From a virus (taxonomy: Duplodnaviria; Heunggongvirae; Uroviricota; Caudoviricetes): a stretch of DNA of 45,459 nucleotides. The DNA is taken from IMG/VR virus record IMGVR_UViG_2651869692_000003. One strand, written 5' to 3'. Position 1 is the stretch's first letter. Every line of letters begins with the position of its first letter. Position numbers: made by a program. Below, one piece after another: positions 39,001-45,000 of the stretch.

Positions 39001-42000
39001 CAGAGTGCAGCGATCCAGCAGATACAGAAGGTTCAGGTTGATACAAATAATAACCTGAACAGCATGTGGGCTGTGAAGCTGCAGCAGATGCAGGACGGAC
39101 GCCTTTATATCGCGGGTATTGGTGCCGGTATTGAAAACACCCCTGACGGCATGCAGAGTCAGGTGCTGCTGGCGGCAGACAGGATTGCGATGATTAATCC
39201 TGCGAATGGCAACACAAAGCCGATGTTTGTTGGGCAGGGCGTTCAGATATACATGAATGAAGTGTTCCTGAAATATTTGACGGCTCCCACCATTACCAGC
39301 GGCGGTAATCCTCCGGCATTTTCCCTGACACCGGACGGGCGACTGACGGCGAAAAATGCGGATATCAGTGGCAGTGTGAATGCGAACTCCGGGACGCTCA
39401 ATAACGTCACGATAAATGAGAACTGTCAGATTAAGAGGAAACTGTCCGCCAACCAGATTGAAGGCGATATTGTCAAAACGGTCAGCAAGTCTTTCCCCCG
39501 CACGAGCACTTATGCCAGCGGCACCATTACGGTCACGATTAGTGATGATCAGAAGTTTGACCGACAGGTCATGATCCCGGCTCTGCTGTTTAAAGGAAGC
39601 AGGAAGGAACATTATGGCAGTAATAATCAACAGTCTTATGTTTATTCTGTATGCCGTTTGCAGGTAACGAAAAACGGGACAGAAATTTTTAACCAGTCAA
39701 CAACGGATGCTCCGGCGGTTTTTTCTTCCGTTATTGATATGCCTGCGGGGCAGGGAACGTTGACGTTAAAGTTTACGGTCTCTTCTTCAATGGTCAATAA
39801 CTGGACACCGACAACCAGTATCAGCGATTTGCTTGTTGTGGTGATGAAGAAATCCACCGCAGGTATCACGATTAGCTGAATTTTATAACCCATATACGGG
39901 CGCCAGAAATGGCGCCTTTTTTATTGCAGAAAAGAGAGAGGTAATTATGCGTAAAGTTTGTGCAGCCATGTTGTCCGCAGCCATCTGTCTGGCCGTATCC
40001 GGTGCGCCTGCATGGGCGTCTGAGCAGCAGGCCACGCTGAGCGCGGGGTATCTTCATGCCCGGACGAACGCTCCCGGCAGCGATAATCTTAACGGGATTA
40101 ACGTGAAATACCGTTATGAGTTTACGGACACGCTGGGAATGGTGACGTCATTCAGCTATGCAGGAGACAAGAATCGCCAGCTGACCCGTTACAGCGATAC
40201 CCGCTGGCATGAAGATTCCGTGCGTAACCGCTGGTTCAGCGTAATGGCGGGGCCGTCTGTGCGCGTGAATGAATGGTTCAGCGCGTATGCGATGGCGGGT
40301 GTGGCTTACAGCCGTGTGTCGACTTTCTCCGGGGATTATCTTCGCGTAACTGACAACAAGGGGAAAATGCACGATGTGCTGACCGGAAGTGATGACGGTC
40401 GCCACAGCAACACGTCTCTGGCGTGGGGGGCTGGCGTGCAGTTTAACCCGACCGAATCCGTGGCCATTGATATTGCTTATGAAGGCTCCGGCAGTGGCGA
40501 CTGGCGCACTGACGGTTTCATCGTGGGTGTCGGTTATAAGTTCTGATTAGCCAGGTAACACAGCGTTATGACAGCCCGCCGGTTCAGGCGGGTCTTTTTT
40601 GTGGGGGGAATATGGCAGTAAAGATTTCAGGTGTACTGAAAGACGGCACAGGAAAACCGGTAGAGAACTGCACCATTCAACTGAAAGCCAGACGGACCAG
40701 CAGCACGGTGGTGGTGAACACGGTGGCCTCTGAAAATCCGGATGAAGCCGGTCGTTACAGCATGGACGTTGAGTACGGGCAGTACAGCGTTATTCTGTTG
40801 GTGGAAGGATTCCCGCCATCCCATGCCGGGACCATCACCGTGTATGAAGATTCTCAACCGGGGACGCTGAATGATTTTCTCGGTGCCATGTCGGAGGATG
40901 ACGTCCGGCCGGAGGCACTGCGTCGTTTTGAACAAATGGTGGAAGAGGCAGCGCGTCATGCCGGGGAGGCGAAGAAGAATGCCGGAGAGGCAGAGACGTC
41001 CGCGAGGAATGCCGGCATATCAGCCAGTCAGGCAGAAAAGAGCGCTGCACATGCTGACACTTCAGCAGGATATGCATCGGAGTCAGCCCGGCAGGCGGCA
41101 GAAAGTGCAGCCTCAGCAAAGCAGTCAGAGGAGGCGTCCTCGTCCTCGGCCTCTGAGGCCGCTCAAAAAGCCAGTGAGTCATCACAAAGTGCAGCAGAAG
41201 CTGAATTGTCAAGAAAGACGGCAGAAAGTGCAGCCGGTAATGCAGCCAGGGATGCAACGACCGCAGCAGAAAAAGCCCGGGAGTCAGCAGAAAGCGCACA
41301 GTCAGCGGAACAAAGCAGGATAGCGGCGGAAGACGCCGTAAACCGAATCCCCACCGTGGTGGGACCTCCCGGGCCAAAGGGATAACCGGGGCCCGCGGGT
41401 CCTCAGGGGCCGAAAGGCGACAGGGGAGAGCGGGGAGAGACCGGTCTGACGGGAAATGCAGGTCCACAGGGTCCAAAGGGAGATACCGGTGCGGCAGGTC
41501 CGGCAGGCCCACAGGGACCGAAAGGAGAAACAGGTGCGGCTGGCCCGGTGGGGGCAACCGGACCTCAGGGACCAAAGGGCGACCCGGGGGAGACACAAAT
41601 CCGTTTTCGTCTGGGGCCGGCGAGCATTATTGAGACAAACAGCCATGGCTGGTTCCCGGATACAGATGGTGCGCTCATCACCGGACTGACCTTTCTTGAC
41701 CCCAAAGATGCCACACAGGTTCAGGGGCTGTTTCAGCATTTGCAGGTCAGGTTTGGTGACGGGCCGTGGCAGGATGTTAAGGGGCTGGATGAAGTGGGCA
41801 GTGATACAGGCAGAACAGGAGAATGACATGAATATACTAAAAAAACTTATGCAGCGTCTGTGTGGTTGCGGAAAGCATGATGGCCGTGAACACGTGCAGT
41901 CGCTTACAGCACAACTGCGACTGGGGCCGGCAGACATCCTGGAGTCAGATGAGAATGGTATTATCCCGGAGCAGGACAGGGTAATCACGCAGGTGGTGAT

Positions 42001-45000
42001 ACTGGATGCGGATAAAAAGCAGATACAGTGCGTGGTAAGACCGCTGCAAATTCTGCGTGCTGACGGGACGTGGGAAAATATTGGCGGGATGAAGTAACCC
42101 GACAGCTTCACAAAACCGGAGTCCGGCTCCGGTTTTTGTGTTGCAATGTCCGGGGGATATTTGTTATGACTATTTAAGTCTGGAGTTCAAATTAAAATAG
42201 GGAGTTTTGTTATGCCATTTACATTTTATTTGTCGTCCGAGAATTAATTGTCAATACAAAATATTGAAGTTTTGCAAAACGCAGCCAGAGCGAATGATAC
42301 AGGGAATATTATAATAGGAGACAGGCAGTTTTCTGTTCGTTATCAGAGCGCTATGGACGCTTTTATTGTTAATCCTGTTCAGGGGGAACTGTATTCAGGT
42401 CTTAATAATAGTGTTTTGGATGATGTTACCAGTCTGGCTGACGTTATTGAGAGTCGGTTGAATGGAGGAAGCTCATTTCTTGATGTATTCGACAGATATA
42501 TGATACAAACAATGCAAACCATGATGAATGGTAATGAGAGCGAGCCTGAATCGTTAGCGACTCGATTATCTTCAAGTGCTTTTTCGGTTTCTCCTGAGGA
42601 TATATTCTGTATACCGGAGGCATTGCAGTGTCCGATTACATTGGCAATTCCAGAGCGTGGTGTTTTTCTTAGAAACTCCGAGGGTTCCTCAGTGTGTAGT
42701 TTATATGATGAAAATGCTCTCTCTCGTATAATTAATGATGGGGGCATCATCCATTAAGTAGGGAGCCAATAACAGCATCAATGATTGTAAAGTCTGAAGA
42801 TTGTATATTTGACGCCTCAAAGGGAAATTTCATTATAAAAGATAGTTAAAACATTTCAAATGAAATAATGTTGACTTTCGATAGTTTATATAAAATCACC
42901 ACAGGCATTCGGAGAGTGAAAAGCTGCCTGTGGTGATAAAAATATGATACGCGAGTTATTCTTCACAAGTCAGAAAGAAAGCAATGAAGGTAAGTAATAT
43001 TATATCTCAAAATACAGGACACTCTTTAGTGTCGCATCGTTCTGAATTTCAGCACGTAATGACTGAAATACGTAATAATCCTGTAAAATTTCTGGAAGAG
43101 AATTTAATTCTTAATCCACAGTGCTATGCCCATCATGATGAGACATCTTTAATTACAGTTAATATTACAAGAGAGGATGGCTTGTTAAGACTAAAAGAAA
43201 TGGAAGATGATATGGCTGGTAGTGATTACATTCTGTTTACAGGTATGCGTGATACTGATAGTCCGGAACGTTTTGATGCGCCTGCAGTTATAAGCTTGGG
43301 TAATCAGTGTATAAGCCTCCGGCGAAATGATATTTCTCAAACTATCCAGCAAAGTTCACCGTTATGGCTAACCAATCAGCAAAGCGGCTGTAGTGTTCTT
43401 ATTGTCCGCCATGGATTATCAGAATCCGGAGAGCAGCAGTATTCAATGATACATATGCGCCCAAGAGATGGTAACGATTTCATAGATGAACTTACGCCAG
43501 AGCTTTATGCTAATACTCAGGAGGTTTTGCTGGAGAGAGATATTCAGCGCACACTTGCTAACACCTTTCCCAATGAACATCCGGAGGCCTTTATTTTGAT
43601 TCCTTCGGCGGAAAAATTTATTGTAGATGGCAATTGCATTCAACTGATTGGTATTGGTAATGAGCAGGGGGAGTTTGATTTTTACAGACAAGTTTATCCA
43701 GTGACAGGTGGAGAGCACCAGGTTGAAGCCTTGATGTGGACGCATTTGCCTGCATGAAAACGTTCAGGAGCATTTTTTGTGGGTTATATCAGTCCATGAC
43801 TTTTGCGACAGTTTCTTTAGATCGGGAATACCAAGTGGAGCGGCACGGCTTGGGTGAAAGATGCAGAAGCAGAAAAATTGTTTCGGATACGGGGAGCGGA
43901 AGAAACAAAAAAACAGCCTGATGCAGGTAGCCAGTGAGCATATAGCGCCGCTTCAGGATGCTGTAGATCTGGAGATCGCAACGGAGGAAGAAAACTCGTT
44001 GCTGGAAGCCTGGAAGAAGTATCGGGTGTTGCTGAACCGTGTTGATACATCAGTAGCACCGGATATTGAGTGGCCGACAATACCGGCGTTATAGTCCGTA
44101 AATGTTCGTCTGACAGGATGCTGAAAGGATGAATTAACGGCCAGATACACAAAAACTGGAGTTAATTTCCAGTTTTTTTTGTTGTCATGTTAGGGTGATA
44201 TTTGTTAGAAAAGTTTAGATATGTTTGTTTTGAAGGTTGAAATGTATGTTATCGCCATCTTTTATAAATTTGGGATGTTCATGGAGTGAAAGTCAAATAA
44301 TGCAATCTTATCATGGAGGAACGCAAGATCTTATTAGTGTGGTATTAAGTAAAATTTAGTAACTTTATCCAGTGTAGTGGATTTGTTGCATGGATGGAGT
44401 TGGTAAAAAGTGGTGTGGCTGGCAATCCAGTCCACGTCACAGAAATGGACAATGCCGCAGAGGACTGGCAAACGGCAATGATCCGCTTTATTATCGAGTT
44501 CGGTGACCGCTTGGATGGTCACTTCTGAGAAAAGGCATTTACACAGAATCCTAAACAGGTTCGCAAATTAAGAAAGAGGTTGTATGTTTAGCATAAGATC
44601 CCTACTACCTATTAGCGCTAGCGTATCAGTTCCGACAAAACAATCTCAATCCATCGCCACAATACTAGGAGGGAGAACAATAGAAAAAATGGAAGAGAGC
44701 GAAGGATTACTTGTGTTTTTAGGAAAAAAAAACGTTGGTGAATATGCTCTTAATATTATTGGACAAAATGTTCCAAGAGTTATAACAGGGAAAAAACCTT
44801 ATGATATATTATTCCTGAATGATGCTACAAAACAAGAGTTTGATAGAAAGAAAACGGAGTTTATAACTCCTGGAGCAAACAAAAGTCATCTACAATCAAG
44901 TGATAGCGATGTTGTTGCCACTGTAGCTATAAGTATTGCAGCGACAGAGATGAAAACCCTCCTGCCAAGTGATATAACACCAGAAAAATACAAAAAAATT

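Follow-up and report, generated by a model that had tools for sequence, protein, structure and literature searches.

A stand-alone PfC domain gene behind the collagen-like tail fibre gene of a lambdoid prophage

The 45,459-nucleotide (nt) stretch of tailed-phage DNA analysed here (IMG/VR record IMGVR_UViG_2651869692_000003, called the window below) carries, at the right end of the tail module of a lambdoid prophage, a gene for a collagen-like fibre that resembles lambda Stf and, directly behind it, a small open reading frame (ORF) of 89 codons. An earlier note on this DNA had seen a clear motif shared by the stf C-terminus and the small ORF, and had suggested that the latter might be a duplicated or alternative receptor-binding tip, or a fibre-assembly partner derived from it. 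Judged by their sequences, both segments represent the same Pfam domain of about 64 residues (PF06820, Phage_fiber_C or PfC) as paralogues and are homologous over the whole domain, not just in a short motif, and the second copy appears to be no silent relic but a separately translated late gene. The gene pair is a known one, already annotated and remarked on in print, and the window itself is ordinary, its fibre gene being inactivated. We give a probability of roughly 0.5 to the reading that the small protein, translated separately, forms a PfC trimer, which would travel with the fibre or the virion as a dispensable accessory.

Two copies of one fibre domain

The fibre-end peptide cited in the earlier note is present in frame 1 and ends at the stf stop, and LRLGPADILESDENGIIPEQDRVITQVVILDADKK is present in the 89-amino-acid (aa) ORF. 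Aligned by BLASTP, the 79-aa fibre end and the 89-aa ORF have 23/62 identities (37%), 63% positives and 2 gaps (E 3e-14), and the likeness spans the entire 62-residue domain, beyond the 35 residues first cited. In Pfam, PF06820 matches residues 330-393 of the fibre (profile 1-64, E 3.5e-36, 123.8 bits) and residues 28-89 of the small ORF (profile 1-64, E 5.1e-36, 123.3 bits), where the curated gathering threshold is 25 bits over the 64-position model. The shared motif is thus borne out both by pairwise alignment, in which the similarity lies far above chance, and by PF06820 at about 1e-36 on both segments; the proposed duplication likewise stands, as paralogous copies of one domain with an old split.

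In DNA sequence the two copies of the domain share about 50% identity, and their longest exact common run is 11 nt (CTGGGGCCGGC). Structure prediction was in keeping with the alignment, since AlphaFold2 (AF2) monomer models of the fibre end and the small ORF are both all-beta with six strands in the same order, at a mean predicted local distance difference test score (pLDDT) of 78 for the fibre copy (about 85 over residues 1-70) and 60 for the small ORF. Neither model had a significant structural neighbour in the PDB, and a profile of both copies found no solved relative among PDB sequences, only spurious matches to optineurin coiled coil (E 0.018). The small ORF as a whole is made up of a predicted N-terminal helix (residues 3-11), a variable linker (residues 13-27) and the PfC domain (residues 28-89). 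With its core residues conserved and its strands predicted in the same order, the stand-alone copy would be expected to trimerise like the fibre-borne PfC.

The fibre belongs by its domain order to the EPclA architecture of enterohaemorrhagic Escherichia coli (EHEC), described as PfN, PCoil, Col and PfC in the passages of Ghosh et al. (2012, PMC3368898) that deal with it. The window protein has the lambda Stf N-terminal domain at residues 1-133 (PF08400, E 1.5e-69), an Ala-rich coiled-coil segment, a single collagen segment of Gly-X-Y repeats at residues 275-327 (PF01391) and the terminal PfC, and its 404 codons equal the 404-aa EPclA listed there for O26:H11. Unlike EPclA of EHEC, however, the window copy appears to be a pseudogene, unless the in-frame TAA within its collagen repeat is a sequencing error: codon 258 reads GGA TAA CCG here versus GGA GAA CCG in an otherwise colinear homologue (L001) that is annotated as intact at 404 aa. 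The earlier note had missed this codon; position 41548, from which it counted the stf C-terminus, is not a separate gene start and is merely the first GTG past the TAA. The small ORF remains intact downstream of the interruption. Because the fibre gene is knocked out by the nonsense codon, the pair is probably not functional as a unit in the window.

In the same passages of PMC3368898, PfC is the C-terminal, trimerising and helix-nucleating knob of EPclA and an autonomous trimerisation module, as judged by size-exclusion chromatography with multi-angle laser light scattering. PfC alone and Col-PfC are both trimers, PfC re-nucleates the collagen triple helix, and recombinant EPclA, Col-PfC and PfC need no other phage protein to fold and trimerise in E. 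coli. Those passages treat only the fibre protein and do not mention a stand-alone PfC gene.

The small ORF as a conserved late gene

The small ORF lies in the +1 frame relative to stf, and the junction ACAGGAGAATGACATGAA, with its AGGAG-N6-ATG arrangement, is common to 97/105 distinct loci; the small ORF appears to be translationally coupled to stf. The hairpin that follows has a folding energy of -25.3 kcal/mol (z = -5.1; 0/200 shuffles as stable) and is not listed by a simple consensus terminator scan. Since hairpin and T-tract come directly past its stop, the small ORF seems to close the stf unit as its last gene, set off from the effector genes by a terminator-like element.

The two genes keep company in whichever direction the comparison is made. 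Among the evaluable IMG/VR loci that were anchored only on the fibre end, 72/77 have an intact small ORF 1 nt past the stf stop, and the fibre end is found immediately upstream in 73/73 loci anchored on the small ORF. To guard against ascertainment bias, selection on each gene was measured in the set anchored on the other, as ratios of nonsynonymous to synonymous polymorphism (pN/pS) pooled over pairwise comparisons. In the fibre-anchored set the small ORF has a pN/pS of 0.17 over its whole length, 0.073 in the PfC domain (at pS 0.145) and 0.32 in the 27-codon leader, while the fibre end has 0.25 in the small-ORF-anchored set; the same small-ORF DNA read in the two wrong frames, as a control, gives 1.2-1.6. 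The small protein is under strong purifying selection, stronger than that on the fibre's own tip.

As a family, the small protein is narrowly spread and abundant where it occurs. PHROG 576 matches it over its full length (residues 1-89 against profile 1-89, E 6.4e-60), and homologues bear the name 'phage tail fiber C-terminal domain-containing protein' from the NCBI annotation pipeline PGAP; neither label differs from what is seen here, and both are annotation only. The small gene is present in 698/5426 complete E. coli genomes, with 6386 copies in all and a median of 10 per genome. Clustering at 50% identity left 83 representatives among 1.84 billion proteins, with matches from E. coli, E. 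albertii and Citrobacter rodentium, and most of the 83 are fragments or deletion chimeras of decaying prophages. A scan of one genome per species returned four loci: one in E. albertii, one in Xanthomonas on a contig that appears to be a contaminant, and weak matches in two metagenome-assembled genomes. Searching with the fibre end gave only fragments and frameshifted versions, and one of the proteins (P0254) sits in a degraded locus broken by an insertion sequence element.

Two further observations concern PfC in other proteins. In many database 'proteins', among them P0024, P0066, P0085, P0142, P0150 and P0155, a PfC end is fused in frame to CII, the J C-terminus, Lom, tail assembly protein T or other unrelated phage genes; these fusions probably arose by deletion in decaying prophages, and they make the architectures of the family seem more varied than they are. 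A phage fibre of 565 aa (P0147), distant in sequence but likewise containing collagen, has four tandem repeats like the C-terminal half of PfC (PF06820, E 1.6e-15), with the pattern …VVVLDAD…GILQVRRADGTWxEIPA…, which suggests that the PfC half-motif may exist as a repeat unit in fibres outside Enterobacteria.

A divergent lineage bears on the age of the pair. Its locus (L165) encodes a 212-aa fibre-like protein that lacks collagen and ends in PfC. Behind it, with an overlap of 14 nt and preceded by AGGAGG, comes a stand-alone PfC gene of 79 aa, and then a terminator-like hairpin. Compared with the window types, identity is 64% from small to small, 40% from fibre to fibre and 30-37% across types, so that the duplication must be older than these lineages; the two genes have stayed together as a unit, with the stand-alone copy evolving the more slowly. 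Pairing with a PfC-bearing fibre is thus found in two architectures, the long-tailed Stf-like one and the 212-aa fibre without collagen. The same pair also follows the EPclB lateral fibre of short-tailed Shiga toxin (Stx) phages, as ORF67/ORF68 of Sp5 (PMC5155283) and gp61/gp59 of phi24B (bioRxiv 10.64898/2026.04.10.717836).

What the small protein may do

These Stx phages supply most of the prior knowledge. Mondal et al. (2016, PMC5155283) described Sp5 ORF68 as an 89-aa polypeptide with PfC alone and counted it among the non-essential late genes, since Sp5 forms plaques and lysogens on K-12 without it; the fibre gene ORF67 is essential and its deletion is dead. They looked for a frameshift signal and saw none, and proposed ORF68 as possibly 'an intragenomic reservoir sequence' for fibre variation. 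For phi24B, a 2026 cryo-electron microscopy and proteomics preprint (bioRxiv 10.64898/2026.04.10.717836) lists, in its supplement on the purified-virion proteome, the peptides ADGTWENIGGMK and VITQVVILDADKK, which are found only in the small ORF and are identical to the window sequence. The supplementary entries assign them to hypothetical fusions (Fusion_6159_FS1/FS2) and to 'gp59_start', annotated 'Spike or just gp59?'. The preprint leaves the gp59 peptides undiscussed in its main text, reports that AlphaFold gave no confident model of the lateral-fibre C-terminal domain, and treats what the conserved lateral fibres do as an open question. Sp5 ORF68 (next to ECs1228) and phi24B gp59 are like the small ORF in length, in their PF06820-only build and in their place after a PfC-ended collagen fibre gene. 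The phages around them differ, in that Sp5 and phi24B are short-tailed with an EPclB fibre (two collagen segments, 645 aa), whereas the window phage is lambdoid and long-tailed, with J and lom lying upstream and a nonsense-broken EPclA fibre with a lambda Stf N-terminus.

A small gene directly downstream of a fibre gene, whose product acts or stays on the distal end of the fibre, is familiar from lambda stf-tfa, Mu S-U and T4 gp37-gp38, and the small ORF holds the same syntenic place as lambda tfa, with a remnant of tfa farther downstream. The small protein differs from Tfa, U and gp38 in being a paralogue of the fibre tip; it bears no similarity to Caudo_TAP (PF02413), and the collagen fibre folds without a helper, according to the EPclA passages of PMC3368898.

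We prefer the accessory-trimer reading. The two segments are ancient paralogues of PfC, an all-beta knob which, in prophage fibres of the EHEC and enteropathogenic E. coli (EPEC) type, forms trimers and nucleates the collagen-like shaft. The small gene encodes PfC behind a short predicted N-terminal helix and a variable linker, and its product would form a PfC-type trimer of its own. This trimer would accompany the fibre or the virion, for example docked on or near the distal knob of the fibre, and its benefit would show outside standard laboratory infection of K-12. The idea of a fibre-assembly partner accordingly survives in part: a partner associated with the fibre or virion is plausible, given the tfa position, the apparent coupling, the constant pairing with a PfC-bearing fibre, the purifying selection and the phi24B virion peptides, and a strict assembly chaperone is disfavoured on grounds given below.

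Several points weigh against an accessory trimer. Conservation is higher in the small protein than in the fibre tip, which is unexpected for a distal adhesin that determines host range, and the pN/pS values behind that comparison are pooled from recombining, non-independent prophage copies. The case for binding to the fibre, or for a location at its tip, is indirect. The virion support consists of two peptides in a supplementary table of the preprint, under the queried entry quoted above, and carry-over of an abundant late protein into the phi24B virion preparation is possible. Sp5 ORF68 is non-essential, so any structural role is dispensable on K-12 (PMC5155283), and the monomer AF2 models are only moderate (pLDDT 60 and 78).

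A more specific proposal, which we regard as tentative, is that the stand-alone trimer docks on the paralogous fibre knob, through its N-terminal helix or by stacking knob on knob, and so forms the true distal end or an adaptor that contacts capsid or host. If true, the fibre tip would be built from a self-derived, separately encoded paralogue, and this would bear on what the conserved lateral fibres do in Stx phages. In EHEC, EPEC and E. albertii, most lambdoid and Stx prophages encode a collagen-like fibre with a PfC end, and a strongly conserved, possibly virion-associated paralogue of the knob offers a cheap and specific handle on what those lateral fibres do.

The reservoir idea of Mondal et al. 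(2016, PMC5155283) makes the small ORF mainly a spare tip cassette that is swapped onto the fibre by recombination and so alters the fibre C-terminus, and we think it unlikely. Natural chimeras of the expected kind do exist: one (P0063) joins collagen repeats directly to a PfC of the small-ORF type, another (P0122) combines the N-terminal half of the small ORF with the C-terminal half of the fibre PfC, and some related loci have a third, partial copy of the small type about 950 nt downstream. These chimeras are, however, clusters of 1-4 sequences, and P0063, the only one whose context was read, lies at a contig end. Copies that share about 50% of their DNA sequence and no exact run longer than 11 nt are a poor substrate for homologous recombination, and the clean separation of fibre and small types, with orthology holding across lineages, argues against ongoing exchange. 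A silent cassette, moreover, needs no conserved ribosome-binding site and ATG, no conserved N-terminal leader and no pN/pS of 0.07 in its own frame, and the model is at odds with the homologue peptides that the phi24B supplement lists from virions (bioRxiv 10.64898/2026.04.10.717836). Hybrids of fibre and small ORF thus exist but are rare singletons; the earlier note's suggestion of an alternative receptor-binding tip gained by recombination fares poorly in view of this rarity, the low DNA identity and the separate types.

We hold it no more probable that the small protein is a Tfa-like chaperone, which would transiently template or cap the fibre knob during folding and would not be a component of the virion. 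Such a role would suit a gene that holds the position of tfa after stf in lambda, is apparently translationally coupled to stf and has a truncated tfa remnant 1.8 kb downstream, as if a module had replaced stf-tfa. At E <= 1, though, the small ORF matches PF06820 only and so falls outside Caudo_TAP; EPclA, Col-PfC and PfC fold and trimerise alone in E. coli in the EPclA work (PMC3368898); the Sp5 fibre gene is essential and ORF68 is among the non-essential genes (PMC5155283); and peptides of the phi24B homologue are listed for purified virions in the preprint's supplement (bioRxiv 10.64898/2026.04.10.717836).

Still less probable is recoding at the stf stop, by a programmed +1 frameshift or by bypass, whereby the small ORF would be partly or mainly an extension of stf and would yield a minor fibre isoform with tandem PfC. 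In 89/105 distinct loci the +1 frame has no stop for 46 codons ahead of the ATG, and the phi24B authors' search database held hypothetical fusion entries among which, by the comment in their supplement, spike and gp59 could not be told apart. On the other side, no slippery sequence is evident by eye at GGA GAA TGA C and none was found by Mondal et al. (PMC5155283), the upstream frame is shortened to 10-16 codons in 12/105 distinct loci, and the conserved AGGAG-N6-ATG with a Met-Asn-Ile/Val-Leu leader points to independent initiation. Neither of the two phi24B peptides retrieved from the truncated supplementary table spans the junction, no sequence search for a junction peptide having been made, and the 14-nt overlap of the genes in L165 is a different geometry. 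A frameshift of the RF2 +1 or lambda G/GT type would call for a conserved slippery site and a conserved open overlap frame, and the RF2-like one seems unlikely as the main route, there being no visible slippery codon and a Shine-Dalgarno spacing that suits initiation better than frameshifting.

We see little prospect for a function in the lysogen, either as a fibre-tip decoy, secreted or anchored by a lipid, that would block the receptor and so exclude superinfecting phage (as with Cor/Llp) or as another lysogenic-conversion 'moron'. The gene does lie next to lom in a moron-rich region between tail genes and effector loci, and its leader contains a superficially lipobox-like L-C-G-C. That leader (MNILKKLMQRLCGCGKHD) is nevertheless polar and, read by eye, lacks a hydrophobic core; Cys14 is Tyr in several natural alleles; and the gene sits upstream of the terminator, inside the stf unit, its translation apparently coupled to that of a late structural gene. 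A scan of both strands in 39800-42700 gave no sigma-70-like promoter. A lipoprotein of the Cor/Llp type was also tried as a candidate and set aside, since the leader (MNILKKLMQRLCGC) has no hydrophobic stretch by eye and some alleles carry the Cys14 to Tyr change. Finally, a non-functional leftover of tandem duplication, as the tiny family confined to Escherichia-type prophages and the dispensability in Sp5 (PMC5155283) might suggest, is already contradicted by the selection data (pN/pS 0.07-0.17 versus 1.2-1.6 off frame), by an ORF intact in 72/77 loci picked regardless of it, by its retention in a lineage whose fibre end has diverged to 40% identity and by the conserved ribosome-binding site.

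Layout of the locus

Table 1. Features around the fibre gene and the small ORF, in window coordinates.
Feature	Position	Strand	Remarks
J	36397-39879		Upstream of lom
lom	39947-40546		Between J and the stf-like frame
stf-like collagen fibre gene	40612-41826	+	404 codons; lambda-Stf-like, EPclA architecture; from translation and Pfam
In-frame TAA in collagen repeat	41383-41385	+	Codon 258 of the stf frame; GAA in intact homologue
Fibre-borne PfC domain (PF06820)	41599-41790	+	Fibre residues 330-393; Pfam match
AGGAG Shine-Dalgarno of small ORF	41817-41821	+	Within last stf codons, 6 nt 5' of ATG
stf stop TGA	41824-41826	+	Frame 1
Small ORF	41828-42097	+	89 aa and stop; ATG 1 nt past stf TGA
Stand-alone PfC domain (PF06820)	41909-42094	+	Small-ORF residues 28-89; Pfam match
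GC-rich hairpin, 3' arm running into TTTTTGT	42109-42140	+	Intrinsic-terminator-like; from folding energy
NleG-like type III effector-type ORF (PF06416)	42248-42757	+	Within cargo region
257-aa ORF	42984-43757	+	No Pfam/NCBIfam match; exchangeable effector region
3' remnant of lambda-type tfa (77-aa ORF)	43861-44094	+	Pfam PF02413 Caudo_TAP, E 5.2e-30
ORF of at least 291 aa running past window end	44584-45459	+	No Pfam/NCBIfam match; exchangeable effector region

The tfa remnant, which lies inside the effector cargo, matches only positions 69-130 of the 131 in PF02413, the C-terminal half, and the stretch homologous to it is labelled 'tail fiber assembly protein, missing N-terminus' by PGAP. 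Since only this part is covered, the distal lambda-type stf and the 5' part of tfa were presumably replaced, and the remnant would mark the far edge of the replacing segment; the block thus indicated would have brought in the collagen-PfC, the small PfC gene, the terminator and the effector cargo. The small gene would then occupy the former place of tfa without being homologous to it. In NCBIfam neither the small ORF nor the ORFs downstream of it matched a named family.

The third, partial copy of the small PfC type, about 950 nt downstream of the small ORF, is present in nine related loci (L002 at 4880-5077, and L003, L007, L010, L029, L035, L045, L053 and L054) and absent from the window. 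It covers residues 37-85 at about 75% identity, lies just upstream of an NleG-like gene, and may mark a recombination joint used in the exchange of effector cargo.

The NleG-like ORF starts at TTG here, and an upstream ATG at 42213 meets a TAA after 11 codons. Its homologues are annotated as 212-aa DUF1076/NleG proteins, and because of this length and the closed upstream frame the window copy may be truncated at its N-terminus. The 257-aa ORF beyond it is labelled 'hypothetical protein' in related E. coli prophages, and in one related locus (L002) a WxxxE-family effector gene comes after the tfa remnant. At the other side of the fibre gene, terminator-like hairpins on the + strand after J (39898-39917) and after lom (40574-40593) flank lom in the usual 'moron' layout.

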